64,000 nucleotides of DNA from positions 15,088 through 79,087 of IMG/VR virus record IMGVR_UViG_2687453464_000002. One strand, written 5' to 3'. Position numbers and translations under genes: made by a program. Under the pieces are notes generated by a model, which was not told where the DNA came from, ran no database searches, and saw only the letters and a list, made by a program, of their open reading frames with translations. The DNA comes from a virus (lineage: Duplodnaviria; Caudoviricetes). The first letter of the stretch is position 1. Every line of letters begins with the position of its first letter. Below, piece by piece: positions 13,865-63,658 of the stretch.

Positions 13865-13924
13865 TTCCTTTGGTGCCGGAACGTCGGCGCCCTCTTCTTT
13901 CTAAAAATCGTGGAGCACAACCAA

Positions 13925-14215
13925 ATGACCGAACCGACCAAGGTGACACTGGACACCCCAATTCAGCGCGGCAAGACCGAAATCGCCGAGATCACCCTAA
14001 CCAAGCCGCAGTCTGGCGCGCTGCGTGGTGTGAAGCTGGCCGACCTGCTGGAAATGGATTATTCCGCGGTGGCGACCGTCTTGCCGCGAGTTTCCACACC
14101 CTCACTGACGCAGCAGGAAATCAGCGAAATGGATCCGGCTGACTTTACGCAGCTGGCGGGCGGCATCGTCAGTTTTTTGTTGCCGAAATCGGCGCTGGAA
14201 TCCCGGCCGGCTTAA
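13925..14215 (+). CDS. E: tail assembly chaperone gpE
   Basis: VTLDTPIQRG, GALRG, LPRVSTPSLT. Confidence 0.92.
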   Translation: MTEPTKVTLDTPIQRGKTEIAEITLTKPQSGALRGVKLADLLEMDYSAVATVLPRVSTPSLTQQEISEMDPADFTQLAGGIVSFLLPKSALESRPA

Positions 14216-52291: not shown

Positions 52292-52490
52292 AAACCTCCG
52301 TACTAATCGGCTGGATAGTGTCTAGAAGCAGGCGCCGGCGCGTATGCTCCGCAAAATGTCGTTTGCCTGTGTCCTTTCGGTAATACTCGTTTTTACCGAC
52401 AACCCACATCGCGCTCGTTTCGTGTAGCTTCTTGAGCTTCGGGCCGTCTTTCGTGATGACCGTTCCTGTATGCGTTTTTACAATGCTCAT
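52278..52490 (-). CDS. hypothetical phage protein
   Basis: ATG 52490 overlapping upstream stop; KTHTGTVITKDG. Confidence 0.65.
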   Translation of the reverse strand: MSIVKTHTGTVITKDGPKLKKLHETSAMWVVGKNEYYRKDTGKRHFAEHTRRRLLLDTIQPISTEVCDEN

Positions 52491-52879
52491 ACAGCCCCCT
52501 TCTGAACGCCGGCCAGTGCCCGATCGAACATTTTGTGCATCAGGCAGTAGCGCAGCTCTACTGGGTGGAAATGCCACAGTGTCGTGTCCGACTGCTTACT
52601 CGTTTTAGAGCGGTAGTTGATGTCGCTCAGCTCGAGAAAACGCTCGCTGGCGTGGATCAGCTGAAAACGTGCCTTGTTCCCCTGGCCGGTTTTGATCATT
52701 TTGACGCTTGGAGATCGCACCATCGCGTGCAGACGACACAGAATAGAACCGCGGCTCATCGTGTGGTCCGGATATGCATCATCGAGCATCCTGTAAATTT
52801 CTGCGGTGCTCAGGTTTTTACCCTTGATCAGCTCAGCGAGCTGTTTCGTTGTTACCCTACGTTCAGATTTGTTGGTCAT
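52487..52879 (-). CDS. hypothetical protein, probable winged-HTH
   Basis: RBS AACCGGAGCATAAACCAATG; LSTAEIYRML helix pattern. Confidence 0.65.
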   Translation of the reverse strand: MTNKSERRVTTKQLAELIKGKNLSTAEIYRMLDDAYPDHTMSRGSILCRLHAMVRSPSVKMIKTGQGNKARFQLIHASERFLELSDINYRSKTSKQSDTTLWHFHPVELRYCLMHKMFDRALAGVQKGAV

Positions 52880-52883
52880 TGGT

Positions 52884-53531
52884 TTATGCTCCGGTTTTCC
52901 TACGTTCGTACTGCTCAAGAAGTAACTGCGCTGGCGTTGGGCCGCTGGCCTTTGGCGCCGCCAACTGGCGGCGGATCGGCGGTATCGGCAAACCTCTTTC
53001 AACCCGCTTTTCCCAGTGCTCCAGCTCTTTACTTGCCTGCTCTCTCAGTTCCTTATCGGTTAATCTCAGCTCTACGCCCTTTCGCTTTAATGCGATGCAG
53101 ATGTGGTACATGACCGGGTGGCTCCACGGAAATTTCTCAGCGCAGCTGTACCGGTAGAACTCATCGCGCCAGCGTTTGTTTTCTGCCAAAACATCGTCAA
53201 CCGACACGCCCAGCGCTCCGCCGCCACACTCGGCCACCAGCGAGACGAACTCCGCAAAATCTGGCGGCCAGTGATTACCTGATTTGCATCGGTCGATGCA
53301 CGCACTGCACACGCGCTGCAGGTGCTCACTGGTCATCGAACTGACCTGTGCCTCCCATAGGTTTGATGGACGATTGCCATTCTTCGCATTCCAGCGTGTC
53401 CCGTAGACCTTGAACATCAGGTCCCACAACCCCCACGCTGGCCCCAGCTGACGACTGCCAGCGCTGCTCCCACTCGAGATACTGCTCGGCGTAGGATCTC
53501 GGGTCACTCTGGTTTGGTCGGAATTCCACAT
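52884..53531 (-). CDS. replication protein P-like (helicase loader)
   Basis: WPPDFAEFV, FPWSHPVMYHIC; AGGAGG RBS; follows initiator gene. Confidence 0.75.
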   Translation of the reverse strand: MWNSDQTRVTRDPTPSSISSGSSAGSRQLGPAWGLWDLMFKVYGTRWNAKNGNRPSNLWEAQVSSMTSEHLQRVCSACIDRCKSGNHWPPDFAEFVSLVAECGGGALGVSVDDVLAENKRWRDEFYRYSCAEKFPWSHPVMYHICIALKRKGVELRLTDKELREQASKELEHWEKRVERGLPIPPIRRQLAAPKASGPTPAQLLLEQYERRKTGA

Positions 53532-54777: not shown

Positions 54778-55020
54778 TCACCGGCGCCCCATCCGGCGCC
54801 CTGGTACGTGCGGACGGTCTGGTTTACCCTTCACTCGCTTGAGCGGCTTTGCGTACGTCTTTGCCATCGCTAAGCTGCTTGCGATCGTGGCGTTCTGCCG
54901 GGACAGGTAATGATCGGCACCGCGTACGGCCGCCGACCGGGCGATGTCGTATTCATACCCATCGCGCACCAGTTGGGCGCGGATCTGCGATTCGATTTGT
55001 TCTCTGGAAAAGTTAGCCAT
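54778..55020 (-). CDS. hypothetical phage protein
   Basis: RBS CAACCGGAGCATAAACCAATG, 80 aa basic. Confidence 0.7.
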   Translation of the reverse strand: MANFSREQIESQIRAQLVRDGYEYDIARSAAVRGADHYLSRQNATIASSLAMAKTYAKPLKRVKGKPDRPHVPGRRMGRR

Positions 55021-55038
55021 TGGTTTATGCTCCGGTTG

Positions 55039-55608
55039 TTACATGCAGCTGCTGAATATTGCCGCTGCACTGGTCATCACTGCCGCCCAGCGTTCCGGCG
55101 GGGCCAGCTTTACCAGCGATTCGATCCCCTCGCGGATTTCCTTCTCAAGTTCGCGCAGCGGCGCACCGAGTAAAGCCGCCTGTTTTGCCTCTGCGCACTC
55201 CTTCATTGCGTCGGCCACCAGCTCGAGCTTGGTCTTCCCCTGCTTTAAGCCGTGCTTTCTCGCGATTTCGATCGGCATCACATCGGCAATCACCGGCGCC
55301 AGCTGCATGACGTAGCCCATGTATTTTTGGGAGCAATGCGGGTTATCCAGCCAGCGGAAGATGTTCTGCTTGTTGTTCCGCTCGGAAACGCCCAGCTGCA
55401 GCCCTTTACCACCGCGGCACAGCCATTCATCAGTGATCAGCTTCGCGATGATTTCCTGCGCTTTGCCGGGGATCGTGGCCTGCCACTCTTCTACTGCCTG
55501 CCGCACGGCGTATGGCTTCACAGTACCGCGGCGGTGAAAACCAGATTGATTTTCTGAAATCACTCCTTGGCCTCCTGTCCTGATAACATCCTGGAAAGTG
55601 AATGACAT
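55039..55608 (-). CDS. CII-like / YdaT family protein
   Basis: AVEEWQ, QNIFRWLD, KECAEAKQAALLGAP...KEIREGI; after cro. Confidence 0.8.
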   Translation of the reverse strand: MSFTFQDVIRTGGQGVISENQSGFHRRGTVKPYAVRQAVEEWQATIPGKAQEIIAKLITDEWLCRGGKGLQLGVSERNNKQNIFRWLDNPHCSQKYMGYVMQLAPVIADVMPIEIARKHGLKQGKTKLELVADAMKECAEAKQAALLGAPLRELEKEIREGIESLVKLAPPERWAAVMTSAAAIFSSCM

Positions 55609-55943: not shown

Positions 55944-56333
55944 ATGAAAGGAAAAAATCACCAAGTTGAGCACCCTCAAGTGCGGCGCCTGAACGAACTG
56001 ATGACAATGAAAGGTATCTCTAAAGCAGAGATGGCCAGGATTGCTGGTGTCAGTCCGCAATCGGTAAATAATTGGTTTTTACGCGGGACCATCGGGAAAA
56101 GCTCTGCGCTAAAGTTATCTGAAGCGCTGGGAGTTTCCGTCGCCTGGCTGCTAGGTGAAGATGTTGATGAGAGCACTGGACTAAACACCAAAGAATCGCA
56201 GATGCTGGCCTTGTTCCGACAACTTCCCGAAGCCGAACAGGAGCGCATGGTTGACGTCTTCCAGAAGCGACTGAAAGAGATCGATGAGTACGTTGAGAAA
56301 TATCTGCGCGGGCGGTATAAGCCAGCGGAGTAG
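55944..56333 (+). CDS. CI-like repressor (Xre HTH, no S24 peptidase domain)
   Basis: Divergent from cro; 129 aa; no obvious SD (possibly leaderless). Confidence 0.88.
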   Translation: MKGKNHQVEHPQVRRLNELMTMKGISKAEMARIAGVSPQSVNNWFLRGTIGKSSALKLSEALGVSVAWLLGEDVDESTGLNTKESQMLALFRQLPEAEQERMVDVFQKRLKEIDEYVEKYLRGRYKPAE

Positions 56334-56435
56334 CCAAGGAGATAACTCCGCAGCTATAAAGGATAAATAGGATGGATGTTTATATATTCAGGCCATATAA
56401 TGACTCATATTTGCAAGTCAAAAGGAACGGAAATA

Positions 56436-57554
56436 ATGGCAAGTATAATATCTCTCTTTAATCATAAAGGCGGTGTTAGCAAAACGACTACTGTATTCCA
56501 TTTAGGGTGGAAGATAGCTTCTACAGGAAAACGGGTTCTTATCATTGATGCCGACCCCCAATGTAATCTAACTGGCCTAACTCTCGGACTTGACGATTAT
56601 GAATCTCTCGTTCGTTTCTATGACAGTAAGCAAAACACTGATATTTTTAACAGCCTTGCTCCAGAGTTCTCTTTGGAAGGCACAAATCACTCACAGATGA
56701 GTTCCACTTCTGTTACTCCAACAAGTAATGAGAATCTTTTCATCTTGGCTGGGAATATTCGCTTTTCAGAGTTAGATACTCAAATCGCTACTGCAATGAC
56801 AAGTAGTAATACTCTGCCAGTATTAAGAAAATTTGTTGGGGCATTCAACCGGCTAGTAAGAAAAATCGCAGCAGAACACAACATAGACATTGTATTGGTT
56901 GACATGAGTCCTAGTGTTTCATCGACAAACCAATGTATCTTGATGAGTTCGGATTACTTTATTGTCCCTATATCTCCTGACTTCTATTGTTATCAAGCAA
57001 TTGATTCACTTAGTAATGTCCTTCCTAAATGGGCCAATGAAATTAATCCATTTAAACAAGGTGGAGATAGCCCGCTACCATCTTCCAACCCCAAAATGCT
57101 AGGGTTTATAACTCAGAACTATCGCATATACACGACGGCTAGCTCTTCTAATCCTGATGAGCCTGAGCAGCCAAAACAAATGTCAAAGGCCTACAGTGAT
57201 TGGTTAGAAAGAATCAAAGATGTTGCCAACCGCAAATTAATTCCAGCTCTAAACAAAGTTTCAATGGTTATTGACGATGATGCTTTTAGGCAATCTGTCT
57301 CTCATGATGCCCCGTACCATTTGGCTGGAGTGCAGAATTTCAGTGGCTTGGTACCAGTTTCTCAGAGACTTTCGAAGCCTATTTTTGATCTTACCAAAGA
57401 GGATGGAAATTGGACTGGTGCCAGATGGATGTGGGAGAAAGGTGGTAAAGAAAATGGCATCAAGGTTAATATTGAAGAAGCAAACCGTGTTTATCATAGC
57501 CTAGCAAAATCAGTGCTTGATATGATTGAACTCGATCAAAAAAGTAAGGTTTAA
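56436..57554 (+). CDS. ParA/MinD family ATPase (orphan)
   Basis: NHKGGVSKTT deviant Walker A, IDADPQCNLT, LVDMSPS. Confidence 0.88.
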   Translation: MASIISLFNHKGGVSKTTTVFHLGWKIASTGKRVLIIDADPQCNLTGLTLGLDDYESLVRFYDSKQNTDIFNSLAPEFSLEGTNHSQMSSTSVTPTSNENLFILAGNIRFSELDTQIATAMTSSNTLPVLRKFVGAFNRLVRKIAAEHNIDIVLVDMSPSVSSTNQCILMSSDYFIVPISPDFYCYQAIDSLSNVLPKWANEINPFKQGGDSPLPSSNPKMLGFITQNYRIYTTASSSNPDEPEQPKQMSKAYSDWLERIKDVANRKLIPALNKVSMVIDDDAFRQSVSHDAPYHLAGVQNFSGLVPVSQRLSKPIFDLTKEDGNWTGARWMWEKGGKENGIKVNIEEANRVYHSLAKSVLDMIELDQKSKV

Positions 57555-57704
57555 CTCCGTTTTTAGGTCTATCCTCCGACTCTTGGTCGGAGCTTGTAAC
57601 CTCTTGATTATAACTAACCGGCCACTGAGCCGGTTTTTTATGCCTCTCCCAACCGGCCACGCGCCGGTTTTCTTACGCCTTGATATCCCCATCGCCAGCG
57701 ACAT

Positions 57705-57767
57705 TAAACATCAAGTTTAACTTTACAAACTCAAAATGTTGACATAGATATAAACAAAGTGTTTAAT
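57705..57767 (+). promoter_or_regulatory. oL/pL: operators TAAAC-N5-GTTTA (57705..57719, 57751..57765)
   Basis: TTGACA(57739)-17-TTTAAT overlapped by an operator palindrome. Confidence 0.78.
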
Positions 57768-57866
57768 GACTCCATCGCAGCAGGTACAACGTTCTGACAC
57801 CGGGAAAGACTGGCGACGGCTGGAGAGACAGCGAGCATAACCAATTACCAACTGAGCAGAAATCGC

Positions 57867-58073
57867 ATGATGGCTATGAGTGATAAGTACAGGTATGGCC
57901 GTTCTAACGCCGGCGTTATCCACATCAAGATCGGGCCACGGGCTGTTGCGTGTAACTCACGCAATAACGGCGTATGGACGTCAACCATTTCAGAAAAAAC
58001 GGCAGCAGCCGCGGCAGAACGCACATTCTGCAAGAAGTGTTTTCCGAACGGTAAACCGGGCACGGGGGAATAA
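57867..58073 (+). CDS. hypothetical protein (first pL gene)
   Basis: 68 aa, H...C and CKKC residues. Confidence 0.6.
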   Translation: MMAMSDKYRYGRSNAGVIHIKIGPRAVACNSRNNGVWTSTISEKTAAAAAERTFCKKCFPNGKPGTGE

Positions 58074-58077
58074 TCCA

Positions 58078-58272
58078 ATGAAAAGCCTGATCCCAAACAG
58101 CGGCAAAGCCATTCACATGCGCAATAAGCGCACCGGCGCGCCGTGGCTAGCATCGTTCGACTATACGTGCGGGCGATATCGTTTTGAGCCAGTCGGCAAC
58201 CTGCGCGCTATCAAGCGCCCGTTTGAATCCCTGCGTATTCCGCCAGAGTTCGAGCCAGCCGGCACCCACTAA
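58078..58272 (+). CDS. hypothetical phage protein
   Basis: GGGGA RBS, ATG 58078, 64 aa. Confidence 0.65.
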   Translation: MKSLIPNSGKAIHMRNKRTGAPWLASFDYTCGRYRFEPVGNLRAIKRPFESLRIPPEFEPAGTH

Positions 58273-58346
58273 GTAAAAAATATCGCAACGTCGTATGCCC
58301 GCCATTTCGGGCAGGGATGAGTGCAACCTGAATTCAATGAGGCATT

Positions 58347-58372
58347 CCCCGCCACGGACGGCGGGGCTTTTT
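58347..58372 (+). terminator. tL-type terminator
   Basis: CCCCGCC-acggac-GGCGGGGC-TTTTT. Confidence 0.75.
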
Positions 58373-58457
58373 GAAGCCATGAAAATGCGTGCCGCGTTTC
58401 CCATTTATTGGTGGGGCGTCAAGGCGTAGGCGCGCATTTCAATGACGAGCAAGAAGC

Positions 58458-58579
58458 AAAAAGGCCCGCACGAGGCGGGCCTATCTGCCGGCTTTACGTC
58501 CCGGCGACGGGTTACCGGGGAACCACCCCCAGCAACCGGAGCATAACCAATGACCAACCGAAGCAGGCCACTGATTGGC
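58458..58579 (-). ncRNA. candidate antisense sRNA with exposed anti-SD seed
   Basis: TTGTGT-18-TACAAT promoter (58613..58584), three hairpins, GGCCCGC/GCGGGCC-UUUUU terminator; seed complementary to several phage RBSs. Confidence 0.6.
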
Positions 58580-58612
58580 TTGCATTGTAACTAAATATCG
58601 GAGAGTTACACA

Positions 58613-61258
58613 ATGCAAAACATCTATGCCTATTACATCAAGGCTAAGCAGAAATCAGGCAAACCGTCGCTTTTCATCTGGTACGAAGCAAAAAGCGACG
58701 CGCGGGCAAAACGCGATCTCGAAAACCTGATCGAAGATGCTGAGCTGGAAACCGGCGACTATTTCAAGGCTGTGCGCACAAACTACCCTGTCGTCGACGA
58801 CCTACCGCCGGAACGCGAGTTTAGCGACACGTGGTGCGACCGCTACGCGCTTGACGACAATAACACCTGGCAGCTGATCCCGGCCGCCGGCCAGAAACAG
58901 CAAGGTGAGGCTGGTTCATCAGCCCCTGCTGAGTATTTCGCATCAAACCTCGACAGACACACAGTAATCGCAGCCGCGTGGCTGTACGGCCGCGACTGCC
59001 TGAAACTCAACGCAGAACAACTGAAGGCGGCCAAGGCACTCGTTATGGACGATGCGCAGCGCTATCCGCAAAACGTGATTCTGGCGCTGTCCAGCCTCAC
59101 GCAGTTTCAGCACTTGTATCCGGAAATGCCGATCACTGCCATCGCCGGTATGAAAGCCATCTGGCCGCCGTTCCACAAAGCGCCCGAACTGGGGAAATTG
59201 TGCCAATTCGCAACGGAATATCTTGATGCACCGGTAGAAGAACGCGAGGGCATTATTCAGAAGTGGATTGCGCCAGCAGCTGCGGCGTCGGCCATGTCGG
59301 CTGAACCGGCTGAACCGGCTGAACCGGCTGAACCGGCTGAACCGGCTGAACCGGCTGAACCGGCTGAACCGGCTGAACCGGCTGAACCGGCTGAACCGGC
59401 TGAACCGCAGGACGATACGCCGCGCACCGAGTCAGGCGCAATACTCACTGACGGCAGCCAGCCAACAAAAGGCACGCCGATCGACTCCCTGCAGATGCTG
59501 GAGACTGTTGTCGGCTGCGCGCTGTATCCGTCCGATTTCGATATTGCCAACCCACCAGGGGCAATCATCCGGGCAGTTACCGAAATGAAAAAGCGCCGCG
59601 ATCCAAAACTGCAGGCATGGAACGACATGCTCAGCAACACGCCGGGGATCCTGCAGTGTTCGCGCGAAGCCATTGTCGATTTAGTCCGCGGCGCCGACGA
59701 AAATCTTCACGCTACGCCCGGCGCGCTGCGCACGTACATCAACACCCATCTGACCGAGTTCGACGTTCCTGCGCGGCCGGCGACAGCGGAAATGGCAAAA
59801 GAGCCTGCTCAGGAAGATAACGACGCTCAAACAGCAGAATACGAGGCCCCACGCCGCGTGTGGCTGCGCCGGGCAGTACTCGACGCACTGGACGGCAAAA
59901 CCAACGTCATGAGCGAAGAGGATGTCGAGGAGCTGCTTCCGGCCGCTGGCGATTTCTCAAAAGTGTATTTCGCTCGGCTGCTCGCTAAGGAAATTGAACC
60001 GTGCGACCCATTCTCTGAGCTCAACAAAGACGATGTTTACCACATCACATGCGACGTACTGGAGAACTGGAGCGACGATAAAGAGCAGCGCACTGAGTTC
60101 ATCACTGGGCGCGTCACATTCAATCTGCGCGAGCGCTACGGTATGCAGCAGGAAAACCCAGCCGTAGAGCGGGATGACGCCTCAAATGAAGGCGAAAAAA
60201 CGGAAGTGGCGCAGCGGCAGAAAAGCGAGCTGCAGAGCCTGGGCGGTGGTCGTTTCGACGTTGGATCGCTATTTGAAAATTCATCCCCAGCCGAAATCGA
60301 CAATTCAGAAATTAAGGCATCCAAAGCTCACAGTAATGAGGAGAAAGAAGCCCCTATGCCGCACGAGAATGAAATCCAACGATCTACTACTGACGATTTC
60401 CAACAACGAGCTACACAGGTTGAACAGGTGATCGCCGAACAACCAGCGGAAGCCCAGCAGAATCTCGATGTCTGGAAGCGTGTTATGCGCACAGATCCTC
60501 GCTACACGAAGCCGATCGAAGGAGCCGGTTATGCCGGTACCAGCATCAACAGCGAATACATGTTTATGCGCGCAACCGAAATTTTCGGCCCTATCGGCAC
60601 GGGGTGGGGTTTTGACATTGTCGAGGAGAAGATGATCGCCGGCGCACCAATGAGCGAGGCCGTATTCGAGGGTGGGAAAATTATTGGCAACCGCATTCTA
60701 CGTGACGCCGACGGCACCATTCTGTTCGAGCAGAACCACAGCCTGCAGATCGAGTTTTGGTATGTCCTGAACGAAACCAAAGGTCGCGTTACAGCATATG
60801 GCGCCACACCGTACATGTATAAAACGAAGCGCGGTTTTATGGCTGACAGTGAAGTGATGAAAAAGAGCCTCACCGACGCGATCAAGAAGTCGCTTTCCAT
60901 GCTTGGCTTCTCTGCTGACGTGTTCCTCGGCTGGCATGACCTGCCTGAATATCGGGAAGAGAACGCGACTGAATTCGCCATCAAGAACGCCAGCGACAAA
61001 GCCGAAGACGTGACGCGGCTGCGCGAAGAGCTGGACGAGAAACTGTCTGCCGTGGCCGAAACCATCAGTACGGCCGTTACAGTCAATGAAGCCAGCAAAG
61101 TTCATGGCTCGATCGCTCGCGAAGTAGAAGCGCACCGCAAAGCAGCCGAAGCAAAAGGTGACACAGAACACGCTAAATACCTGGCCAGCCGCCTGCGCCG
61201 CCTTACCGTTCTGAAAGATGAGCGTATCACCGCCTTGTCAGAGGAGAAAGCACAATGA
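58613..61258 (+). CDS. RecE (exonuclease VIII)-type N-terminus fused to Rad52/Sak-like annealase C-terminus
   Basis: KAKQKSGK...WCDRY N-terminus; TSINSEY...[13 protein letters not shown]...[25 protein letters not shown]-terminus. Confidence 0.75.
59300..59407 (+). repeat. perfect in-frame 9-bp tandem repeat (GCTGAACCG)x12 encoding (AEP)12
   Basis: Direct read of sequence. Confidence 0.97.
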
Positions 61259-61943: not shown

Positions 61944-62012
61944 TTTTCGAGAATCAAAACACAACGCCGGCCGCGGTTAATATTGCGGCCGGTTGTGCGC
62001 AGGAGCATAACC

Positions 62013-62285
62013 ATGACCAAATTACTGACGTTAGAAGAATGGTGCGAAAGCGTCTACGAGAGCTACAAGCCGAATATCCAAACACTATGGCGCTGGGCGC
62101 GCAACGGCAATTTCTACCCGCCGGCGGAAAAACACGGCAAACGGTACATGCTGAAACCCGGCACGATTTACATCAAGCCCAACGATCCAACGCTGGGTAA
62201 GAAAATTAAGGAAGCGCAGAGCGCCGCGCCGGCGCGCGAGGCGTTTATGGAGAAAGTGATTAATGACACGGCGGGGAGGATATGA
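62013..62285 (+). CDS. xis: excisionase
   Basis: LLTLEEW, TLWRWARNGNFYPPAEKHGKRY; overlaps int. Confidence 0.9.
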   Translation: MTKLLTLEEWCESVYESYKPNIQTLWRWARNGNFYPPAEKHGKRYMLKPGTIYIKPNDPTLGKKIKEAQSAAPAREAFMEKVINDTAGRI

Positions 62286-63342
62286 CATGCGACTACCGAA
62301 AAACCTGACCTACCGCCGTAGCCGGAACGCTTTCTATTGGCGTAATCCAGTAACCCAAAAAGAGATCTCCCTCGGGCAAATAGCGCGCCGTGACGCCATA
62401 GCGCAGGCGATCGAAGCAAACCACTATATTGAGCAGAACTACTCCCCTGTTCTGCTGCTGGAGAAGATTAAAGGCACGCACGAATACACGCTAAACTCCT
62501 GGCTCGAGCGTTACGACGTCATTTTTAAGCGCCGCAACCTGGCCGAGGCAACGTATAAAGTTCGCCGCGGTCAGATTGCGATCGTCAGCGAAAAACTTGG
62601 CGACATGGTGCTGTCAAAGATCACGACGCGGCACGTCGCCGAGTTCCTGGAATTATGGGTTGCGCAGGACAAAAAGACGATGGCCACGACCATGCGATCG
62701 GTGCTGTCCGACATTTTCCGCGAAGCCATTGTCGAGGGGCACATCGAAAACAACCCCGTCACCCCTACTCGCGCGGCAAAAGTCACAGTGAAGCGGGAAC
62801 GGCTGGAGCTGTCGCAATATATCCAGATCCGCAAAGCGGCCGACCAGCTGCCGCCTTGGTTCGGTTTGTCGATGGATCTGGCGCTGATCACTGGGCAACG
62901 CCGGGAGGACGTCGCACTGATGCGGTTCGACAACGTCACGAACGGGCGCCTGCAGTTCGTCCAGGGGAAAACAGGCGTCAAATTGTCGCTGCCGCTGGAT
63001 CTTGAACTCGCGGCTACCGGCCTGCAGCTGCGCGCGGTGATAGGCCAGTGCCGATTGACCAGCACCACCGATTTCATGATCAGCGCCGGCATTCGGAAAA
63101 ACAGCCCGGATGGCGCTCTGCACCCTGACGGATTAACGAAAAAGTTTGTCGCGGCGCGGCGAGCTGCCGGGATTGAATTTGCAGAGAGTCCGCCGACGTT
63201 CCATGAGATCCGGAGCTTGGCCGGCCGGCTGTATGAGCGGGAAAAGGGAAAGGAATTTGCGCAGAAGCTATTAGGGCATAAATCCGAAGCAATGACGGGA
63301 AAATACCTGGACTCGCGGGGGAAAGAATACGTGATGTTATAA
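62263..63342 (+). CDS. int: tyrosine integrase, lambda type
   Basis: LPKNLTY arm domain, TGQRRED, PTFHEIRSL, LLGHKS...YLDSRG. Confidence 0.96.
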   Translation: MTRRGGYDMRLPKNLTYRRSRNAFYWRNPVTQKEISLGQIARRDAIAQAIEANHYIEQNYSPVLLLEKIKGTHEYTLNSWLERYDVIFKRRNLAEATYKVRRGQIAIVSEKLGDMVLSKITTRHVAEFLELWVAQDKKTMATTMRSVLSDIFREAIVEGHIENNPVTPTRAAKVTVKRERLELSQYIQIRKAADQLPPWFGLSMDLALITGQRREDVALMRFDNVTNGRLQFVQGKTGVKLSLPLDLELAATGLQLRAVIGQCRLTSTTDFMISAGIRKNSPDGALHPDGLTKKFVAARRAAGIEFAESPPTFHEIRSLAGRLYEREKGKEFAQKLLGHKSEAMTGKYLDSRGKEYVML

Positions 63343-63420
63343 AAGACCGAATACAGAAATTCGGACGAAATTCGGACATTTTCGGACAATCTGAAATAAA
63401 GCCATTAAAATCAATCACTT

Positions 63421-63444
63421 AAAAAAAGACCGAATACGATTCCT
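63421..63444 (+). repeat. att core (right copy)
   Basis: Identical to 19986..20009; TTCGGAC x3 arm-like repeats at 63360..63387. Confidence 0.92.
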
Positions 63445-63526
63445 ATATTCGGTCTAGGGAAATGGCTCTTGGGAGAGAGCCGTGCGCTAAAAGTTGGCAT
63501 TTATTGCAGGGCTTGTTCAGCCATGC
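63421..63526 (-). ncRNA. sdsR: SdsR (RyeB) sRNA
   Basis: - strand AATGCCAACTTTTAGCGCACGGCTCTCTCCCAAGAGCCATTTCCCT + GACCGAATA/TATTCGGTC terminator; sigmaS-type CTACGCT -10 upstream; next to yebY. Confidence 0.92.
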
Positions 63527-63658
63527 ACTTTAAGCGTAGCCTACACGGCGGCTTTTGCCAGCCAGGCGCACGGCGGGTGATAGTTTCTACGCGGCATTAA
63601 ATGCGTACAGAATTCACCCGATTGTTAACTTATTGATAAGCCAACGCGACGCCTGGCC

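Follow-up and report, generated by a model that had tools for sequence, protein, structure and literature searches.

Introduction

Immunity of lambdoid phages is taught as a protein-based process governed by CI and Cro; RNA-based immunity is known from the phages P1/P7 and P4, where it involves one operon leader. The c4 RNA of P1/P7 and the CI RNA of P4 are antisense RNAs of the lysogen that recognize two sites within one operon leader. Each is processed from the target transcript itself and controls how a gene in the leader is translated, which has polar effects further downstream. Here we describe a predicted antisense small RNA (sRNA) gene in the leader of the recombination gene recE, located in a stretch of 64,000 nt (termed “the window” throughout) that forms part of the IMG/VR provirus record IMGVR_UViG_2687453464_000002. 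A segment of this RNA is complementary to a short motif that recurs at the starts of several early genes of the same prophage. The reading that we favour, and consider reasonably probable on the available sequence comparisons, is that of a cis-antisense regulator of a micro-open reading frame (micro-ORF) in the recE leader, which would also repress several early genes in trans.

IsrB-1 and IsrB-2, the positional counterparts of the RNA described here, are reported as starvation-induced Salmonella RNAs of 88 and 94 nt that were demonstrated by Northern blot and primer extension (PMC2330248). According to the same study, they sit between sbcA (recE) and STM1010 in Gifsy-2/Gifsy-1 and are antisense to both genes (PMC2330248). 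Two further studies report that IsrB-1 was also detected by RNA-seq of lysogens (PMC7067206), and that it was hardly enriched with Hfq in the read counts given (2 versus 4 reads; PMC2515195). A search of the open-access literature, which covered articles without their supplements, found no function for IsrB or for an antisense RNA at recE.

A predicted sRNA gene antisense to the recE leader

The predicted sRNA comprises about 120 nt on the - strand (58458..58578, with a predicted 5' end). The putative promoter (58584..58613, - strand) consists of a -35 element TTGTGT (58613-58608), a spacer of 18 nt and a -10 element TACAAT (58589-58584), and it overlaps the start codon and the ribosome-binding site of recE on the opposite strand. 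Within the RNA, hairpin 1 (58576-58545) is joined to hairpin 2 (58537-58510) by a single-stranded linker of 7 nt, AUGCUCC (58544-58538), followed by hairpin 3 (58505-58487, with an alternative stem at 58509-58497) and an intrinsic terminator (58457..58482), for which the terminator scan found an 8-bp G+C-rich stem (58482..58462 plus T run) that leads into a U run. A folding energy of -63.8 kcal/mol was computed for the 121-nt RNA (z = -4.5), and none of 200 shuffled sequences was as stable. Promoter, hairpins, linker and terminator had been proposed in an earlier note on this DNA, and all of them were recovered in our analysis.

The element was located by a pattern scan in 27 IMG/VR contigs and is also present in several enterobacterial genomes. 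Among recE relatives it lies nearly unchanged 5' of recE in 24 of 24 cases (23 IMG/VR loci and phage pAEv1818). Each of the 23 unique relatives retains the -10 hexamer (TACAAT in 15, TAGAAT in 8), while the -35 element reads TTGTGN in 21 and the spacer measures 18 nt in 19 of them. In an alignment of 19 distinct sequences, standard pairs fill 96.9% of the cells, versus 29-51% in controls with the partners displaced by 1-3 columns; both bases have changed in four pairs, many pairs swap G-U for A-U/G-C or vice versa, and six of the eight pairs of the terminator stem are invariant. Counted by strand, 695 of 720 pairs form in the - strand RNA (158 of them G-U) versus 537 of 720 in the + strand RNA, and since G-U pairs turn into A-C on the opposite strand, the structure can be assigned to the - strand. 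The conserved -10 element, the conserved terminator and the strand-specific structure make a - strand sRNA gene a well-supported prediction; promoter elements, structure and terminator are all retained, as expected of an independent sRNA gene.

A covariance model built from the alignment of the element, termed R1, scores the copy in the window at 149 bits. In a sample of 151 genomes from the family to which a Serratia genome belongs, 5 gave an R1 match; within the genus of that genome, 4 of 16 did. The divergent versions found in this way keep a TATAAT or TATACT -10 element at the same distance from hairpin 1. The E. coli genomes gave no match to the 501-nt region, and among the matches listed in a pattern scan of genome contigs, two Serratia loci were useful. 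In individual metagenome-assembled genomes of Elusimicrobia, Omnitrophota and Planctomycetia, dozens of contigs (loci L181-L259) also contain the 18-base pattern TGGTCATTGGTTATNNNNNGGTT, and these matches were set aside as an unrelated, highly repeated element.

A start-site motif complementary to the sRNA

The cis target is a micro-ORF of 14 codons, MTNRSRPLIGLHCN, located in the recE leader (58550-58594, + strand). It had been named as a cis complement before, and its presence and sequence were checked. The Shine-Dalgarno (SD) sequence and AUG of the micro-ORF are the exact complement of the sRNA linker and the 3' arm of hairpin 1, and its stop lies 18 nt upstream of the recE ATG. In the 23 unique relatives the micro-ORF has 14 codons in 21 cases, and 13 and 27 codons in one case each. 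In the Klebsiella phage ST16-OXA48phi5.1 (L030, 1429-1500), the annotated recE start is the ATGACC equivalent of the micro-ORF start in the window and lies 20 codons upstream of the onset of RecE similarity; the micro-ORF may in some phages be fused to recE or mis-annotated as the recE start.

The part of the sRNA that faces this translation initiation region (the anti-TIR segment) comprises, besides the linker, the 3' arm of hairpin 1 and the 4 nt with which hairpin 2 begins (58534..58558, - strand) and is the complement of AACCGGAGCATAACCAATGACCAAC. It is the sole part of the sRNA region that is repeated at gene starts elsewhere in the window. The sequence GGAGCATAACCA occurs four times with at most one mismatch, versus 0.19 occurrences expected, and none of 100 shuffles reached four. 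An ungapped 20-mer search retrieved the cis copy only, because the trans copies have a 1-nt insertion or deletion; in gapped searches, the fuller motif AACCGGAGCATAA(A)CCAATGACCAAC was found at the pL leader and at the starts of xis, an ORF of 80 aa and an ORF of 130 aa. The motif, to which we also refer as a barcode, measures 20-25 nt, and except for the pL leader all trans copies sit on the SD and ATG of an ORF (xis, 80-aa ORF, 130-aa ORF and a tail gene).

The pL-leader copy, GCGAGCATAACCAATTACCAAC (57825..57849, + strand), has ATT in place of ATG in the window; in relatives, this site is the SD and ATG of the first pL gene. Further copies lie on the SD and AUG of the 80-aa ORF (55015..55039, - strand), of the 130-aa ORF (52871..52900, - strand) and, in a weaker form, of xis (61996..62018, + strand). 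The gapped searches thereby recovered every complementary site that the earlier note had listed for ORF 55020, ORF 52879, xis and the pL leader. Its suggestion that replication-region genes are among the targets would apply to two pR-operon genes beside the replication genes, and not to the O-like and P-like genes themselves. A poorer copy with two mismatches and a bulge is found on the start of a tail gene (phrog_103; 13906-13930, + strand; predicted binding -21.8 kcal/mol), and it may represent a chance match or a late-gene target.

Pairing was predicted for the sRNA against the entire window. Duplex energies computed on full-length RNAs were inflated (mean -30 kcal/mol) and served as a prefilter only; the cofold values include the cost of opening hairpins 1 and 2 and remain predictions. 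In an unbiased scan of the full sRNA against both strands, the motif sites rank highest after the cis region, with -27.1 kcal/mol for the pL leader, -26.4 kcal/mol for the 52879 start (130-aa ORF) and -21.0 kcal/mol for the 55020 start (80-aa ORF), and the next site follows at -17.6 kcal/mol. Across calculations, predicted binding ranged from -19 to -26 kcal/mol at the 52879 start and from -20 to -21 kcal/mol at the 55020 start. The background, obtained from 300 random windows, has a mean of -4.4 kcal/mol (sd 2.5) and a minimum of -13.5 kcal/mol.

Concerted variation of sRNA and motif in related prophages

The motif variants of related prophages were typed by the 9 nt preceding ACCA(A)TG; this 9-mer analysis replaced a 20-mer confusion matrix, in which the common 3' half of the variants caused noise. 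Six variants were found, and each is that of the prophage's own cis site, hence of its own sRNA. The window-type variant CGGAGCATA is present in seven genomes with 3-6 trans copies each, accompanied by essentially none of the other variants. Contig G001 has 4-5 trans copies of the variant CGAGACATA and none of the window type; its linker reads AUGUCUC versus AUGCUCC in the window, and its motif CCGAGACATAA(A)CCAATG stands in the same form at the cis site, the first pL gene, a phrog_3722 gene and two pR-operon genes. Six trans copies of CGAGGTATG occur in G140 and 5-6 of CGAGGCAAG in G028, and prophage G130a has two own trans copies of CGAGGCATG together with two that show a C-to-T change, which would pair as G-U. 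The 9-mer variant-by-genome matrix is diagonal, and the chance expectation is about 0.01 sites per genome (~50 anchors per 40-kb region times ~2e-4 per anchor).

Orthologous sites with conserved flanks carry the local variant. This is seen at the pL leader after CCGGAAAGACGG, at xis after GGCCGGT(T/C)GT, and at the start of the phrog_3722 gene in G001 and G130a. The barcode of relatives is also found on recT and other early genes, and in every lineage the complement of the motif lies in or around the sole single-stranded linker of the sRNA. Genome G164, which was fetched afterwards, harbours two prophages: the first shows CGAGGTATG at five trans sites and no window-type site, and the second has an extra A in its cis site that recurs in three of three trans copies, including the pL leader, where other window-type phages have no such A. 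A host-level explanation, e.g., a preference of the ribosome, is excluded, since two prophages in one host genome keep separate variants; the motif is read by something specific to the phage.

A prophage's own sRNA gives the strongest predicted binding (-16 to -27 kcal/mol), and pairings across lineages are weaker except between G140 and G130, which are one wobble-compatible base apart. Covariation of seed and target motif, suggested earlier as a check and expected of a multi-target sRNA that acts in trans, was found with some exceptions, and the match of six variants to their own sRNAs favours the multi-target idea. The matches listed in a 14-mer scan of viral contigs were mostly chance, and at least three contigs had an extended motif and no sRNA. 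These three are fragments 28-57% complete with a single copy each and no R1 match, which is consistent with chance.

Two side observations concern individual genomes of this set. Phage pAEv1818 (L033) was deposited as an Aeromonas phage, and its early region (11.8-22.1 kb) is nearly identical to prophages in Serratia genomes; it has an un-annotated sRNA between genes 16 and 17, and barcode copies on xis, recT and genes 24 and 27. G130 is one genome with three prophages (L305, L308, L309) of the same sRNA type.

Relationship to IsrB and other antisense units at recombination genes

The earlier note had pointed to Gifsy IsrB as a positional analogue, and this comparison is correct: the Gifsy-2 locus has the same layout and orientation beside recE. 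The window RNA shares with IsrB (RF01386) an own promoter and terminator (predicted for the window RNA), the site between recE/sbcA and the upstream pL gene, the antisense orientation to both neighbours and the overlap with the recE 5' region. It differs from IsrB in its length of ~120 nt versus 88/94 nt, and Gifsy-2 has neither a micro-ORF under IsrB nor a repeated start-site motif. The Rfam search that had been proposed gave no family membership, as the window RNA matches the isrB model with 26.3 bits over its 3' half, below the gathering score of 35 bits (E 0.027 in a 1.3-kb search, E 3.8e-4 per record). Among nine loci, the isrB model hits Gifsy-2 only (99.3 bits), and the other eight gave no match at E <= 0.1; the R1 model, in turn, gave no match to Gifsy-2. 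The Rfam family C4 (P1/P7 c4 type) is absent among the nine matches listed for 57600-58900 at E up to 10 and does not reach its gathering score anywhere in the window.

A promoter-hairpin-terminator unit on the - strand occurs at the same place in ST16-OXA48phi5.1, PHB10 and Rac-SA53, and G028 joins a window-type 5' half to an IsrB-type hairpin with a CUUUGGUC loop (by eye). These units would together constitute one loose superfamily of antisense RNAs at the recombination-gene leader, in which the window RNA is related to Gifsy IsrB by position and probably also by distant descent.

Inspection by eye revealed a loop (C/G)UUUGGUC or GGUUGGUC that almost the entire wider family shares, including IsrB (Gifsy-2 L028, L030, L031, L304-L306, L302, L326). 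The complement of this loop, GACCAA, is part of the barcode (..GACCAATG / ATGACCAAC), and the shared hairpin loop could initiate pairing as a kissing loop or bind a protein. In Rac-SA53 (L032), the region 402-635 upstream of kilR gave sub-threshold Rfam matches to DicF (41.1 versus 48 bits) and STnc100 (43.8 versus 47 bits); the antisense promoter-hairpin-terminator unit between racC and recE is separate from these.

Prophage setting and gene order

The window is a lambdoid prophage at the ryeA/ryeB locus, a described insertion hot spot in enterobacteria. Rfam matches to SraC/RyeA (140.9 bits) and SdsR/RyeB (102.6 bits) at 63417-63564 directly adjoin the tyrosine integrase gene int (62263-63342). 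The - strand from ~55850 downwards corresponds to a pR-type operon that encodes Cro-like and YdaT-like proteins, the 80-aa ORF, O/DnaD-like and P-like proteins and the 130-aa ORF. The 80-aa ORF (phrog_4439; 54778-55020, - strand) follows just after the YdaT-like gene, and the 130-aa ORF (phrog_4183; 52487-52879, - strand) lies inside the P-like gene, at its 3' end.

The + strand at the sRNA locus corresponds to a pL-type operon. Between a gene for a CI-like repressor (55944-56333) and the pL-type promoter lies a gene for a ParA-like ATPase of 392 aa (AAA_31, phrog_164; 56376-57554, + strand), in a position where lambdoid phages often place accessory genes that are expressed in the lysogen. This gene is followed on the + strand by two hairpins resembling intrinsic terminators (57616-57640 and ~57651-57674) and by a likely pL-type promoter recognized by eye (TTGACA, 17 nt, TTTAAT; 57739-57767, + strand), which the consensus scan did not call because its rule needs an A at position 2 of the -10 element. 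Two small pL ORFs (57867-58073 and 58078-58272, + strand) come next, and the terminator scan placed an intrinsic terminator (58347-58372, + strand) 3' of them and 5' of the sRNA gene. In this predicted layout, pL transcripts must pass the + strand terminator before they reach recE (exodeoxyribonuclease VIII; 58613-61258, + strand; Pfam PF06630, E 2.7e-17), which lies downstream of the cis target. Beyond recE are a Gam/Gp157-like gene, xis (62013-62285, + strand; excisionase phrog_629, E 2e-16) and int, in that order.

A model of sRNA function and its alternatives

According to the favoured reading, the sRNA would be made in the lysogen from its own promoter, against the pL operon. Pairing over the SD and AUG of the micro-ORF would block its translation and in turn lower the production of RecE, assuming that the two reading frames are coupled. 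The same segment would pair over 20-25 nt with the barcoded starts on the pL and pR transcripts and block initiation there, perhaps with polar effects on genes further downstream. Leaky early transcripts would be silenced in the lysogen up to a threshold, and after induction, abundant early mRNA with several copies of the motif per transcript would titrate the sRNA. Transcription from pL that continues past the terminator at 58347-58372 would interfere with the promoter of the sRNA by collision.

Several observations weigh against this reading. The sRNA promoter has a weak -35 element that matches TTGACA at three of six positions only, and for this reason the consensus scan called no promoter at the sRNA locus. 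Only ~7 nt of the anti-TIR segment are single-stranded, and the remainder has to be extracted from hairpins 1 and 2. The site at xis is the weakest target in the window (-15.9 kcal/mol) and is not among the listed top matches of the unbiased scan. A match at a “cII-like” ribosome-binding site, which had been put forward in the earlier note, turned out to be the start of the YdaT-like gene (55611), and with a predicted binding of -1.6 kcal/mol it is no better than background. A T-to-A mismatch interrupts the centre of two trans copies in G140, the G001 copy at xis is intermediate and follows neither variant, and the cis sites of G130b and G130c have 1-nt changes that are missing from the trans copies; the latter may reflect decay or cross-regulation among co-resident prophages. 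Wobble-compatible transitions outnumber incompatible ones by 54 to 7, a count that is confounded by the C-rich edges of the motif. The covariation as such proves that there is a common phage-specific reader and does not prove that this reader is the sRNA. Finally, Gifsy-2 IsrB, PHB10, Rac-SA53 and G006b have the antisense unit at the same place and no repeated motif, and trans targeting is consequently not a property of the whole family. If real, the trans function elaborates, within one clade, on a cis function that is probably ancestral.

The same four members imply that a cis role is enough to keep the gene, and they lend weight to an explanation in which the sRNA is real and acts in cis only. 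The motif would then be read by another phage-specific factor, e.g., a RegA-like RNA-binding translational repressor, and the match to the sRNA would be due to its overlap with one of the copies. Operator-repressor systems likewise show concerted variation of multiple sites, and the internal mismatches of some trans copies to the sRNA are compatible with a different reader. We nevertheless regard this explanation as unlikely: no candidate protein was identified, the motif always lies in sense orientation on the SD and AUG, which points to a role at the RNA level, and its complement sits around the only linker of the sRNA in every lineage. Moreover, the cis copy has changed together with the trans copies in all six variants, one of them an indel, and nowhere in the window are better duplexes predicted. 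A further candidate, the motif as an extended complement of the 16S rRNA 3' end, was dropped by eye, as its register differs between variants.

Strict placement on the SD and AUG and strict sense orientation also speak against the notion that the copies are mere recombination linkers or products of gene conversion, i.e., module-boundary repeats without regulatory meaning, an alternative already named in the earlier note. It is true that the copies are located at boundaries between genes, and that the genome is a lambdoid mosaic with a recombinase of its own. Yet linkers at different positions need not be identical, identical direct repeats favour deletions, and conversion needs flanking homology, of which there are only 8-10 nt on each side of the variable bases; moreover, two prophages in one cell retain separate variants. 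We rate this notion as distinctly improbable. Even further removed, and hardly credible in our view, is the absence of any sRNA, with the hairpins belonging to the + strand leader of the recE mRNA or forming back-to-back terminators between convergent units. The region is indeed the 5' untranslated region of recE with its micro-ORF, a + strand terminator lies ~90 nt away, and the promoter was missed by the consensus scan. Against this stand the 158 G-U pairs that become A-C mismatches on the + strand, the T run that follows the terminator stem on the - strand only, the -10 hexamer at a fixed distance in all lineages, and the equivalent Gifsy unit, which is an experimentally detected RNA.

Beyond the individual locus, we tentatively propose a clade of lambdoid phages with RNA-based, sequence-addressed silencing, a possibility for which we would not claim an even chance. 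Each phage would barcode 4-7 of its early genes, comprising the first pL gene, recombination genes, xis and the genes flanking the replication module, and one IsrB-like sRNA, whose gene lies antisense to one of these copies, would read all of them as a second, repressor-independent immunity determinant. The sRNA would then repress an incoming phage of the same barcode and spare other types; the diversification of the barcodes, which resembles the immunity specificities of c4 and CI, suggests such an action on incoming phages of the same type. If this holds true, excision, recombination and neighbouring early genes are under an additional, post-transcriptional lock in a widespread class of enterobacterial prophages, the conserved SD-AUG spacers of these phages are explained, and IsrB-type RNAs, orphans since 2008 in the open-access literature searched, gain a plausible first function. 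Six natural, orthogonal sRNA-barcode variants would also be at hand.

Comparison with known antisense systems

The c4 and CI systems resemble the predicted sRNA in that short segments complementary to a phage antisense RNA recur in early transcripts, and in that the RNA and its targets differ together between heteroimmune relatives. The sRNA of the window differs from both by its own convergent promoter and by the distribution of the complementary copies, which cover the starts (SD and AUG) of 3-6 individual genes spread over both early operons.

With the CopA/CopT-tap-repA system of plasmid R1, the locus has in common a stem-loop antisense RNA of ~90-120 nt that covers a short leader ORF just upstream of the regulated gene. 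In plasmid R1 this arrangement controls copy number through a single cis target; at the locus described here, the coupling of micro-ORF and recE would be the corresponding, and so far putative, step.

DicF of Qin, Sar of P22 and OOP of lambda are likewise base-pairing RNAs encoded by (pro)phages, and DicF has several targets. DicF hits host genes via a conserved seed, and Sar and OOP have one local target each; to our knowledge, none of the three reads a phage-specific motif that is repeated on the phage's own gene starts. Compared with these systems, the sRNA at the recE leader appears to be a variant of phage antisense-RNA control, the multi-target part of which is supported by the comparison of related prophages.

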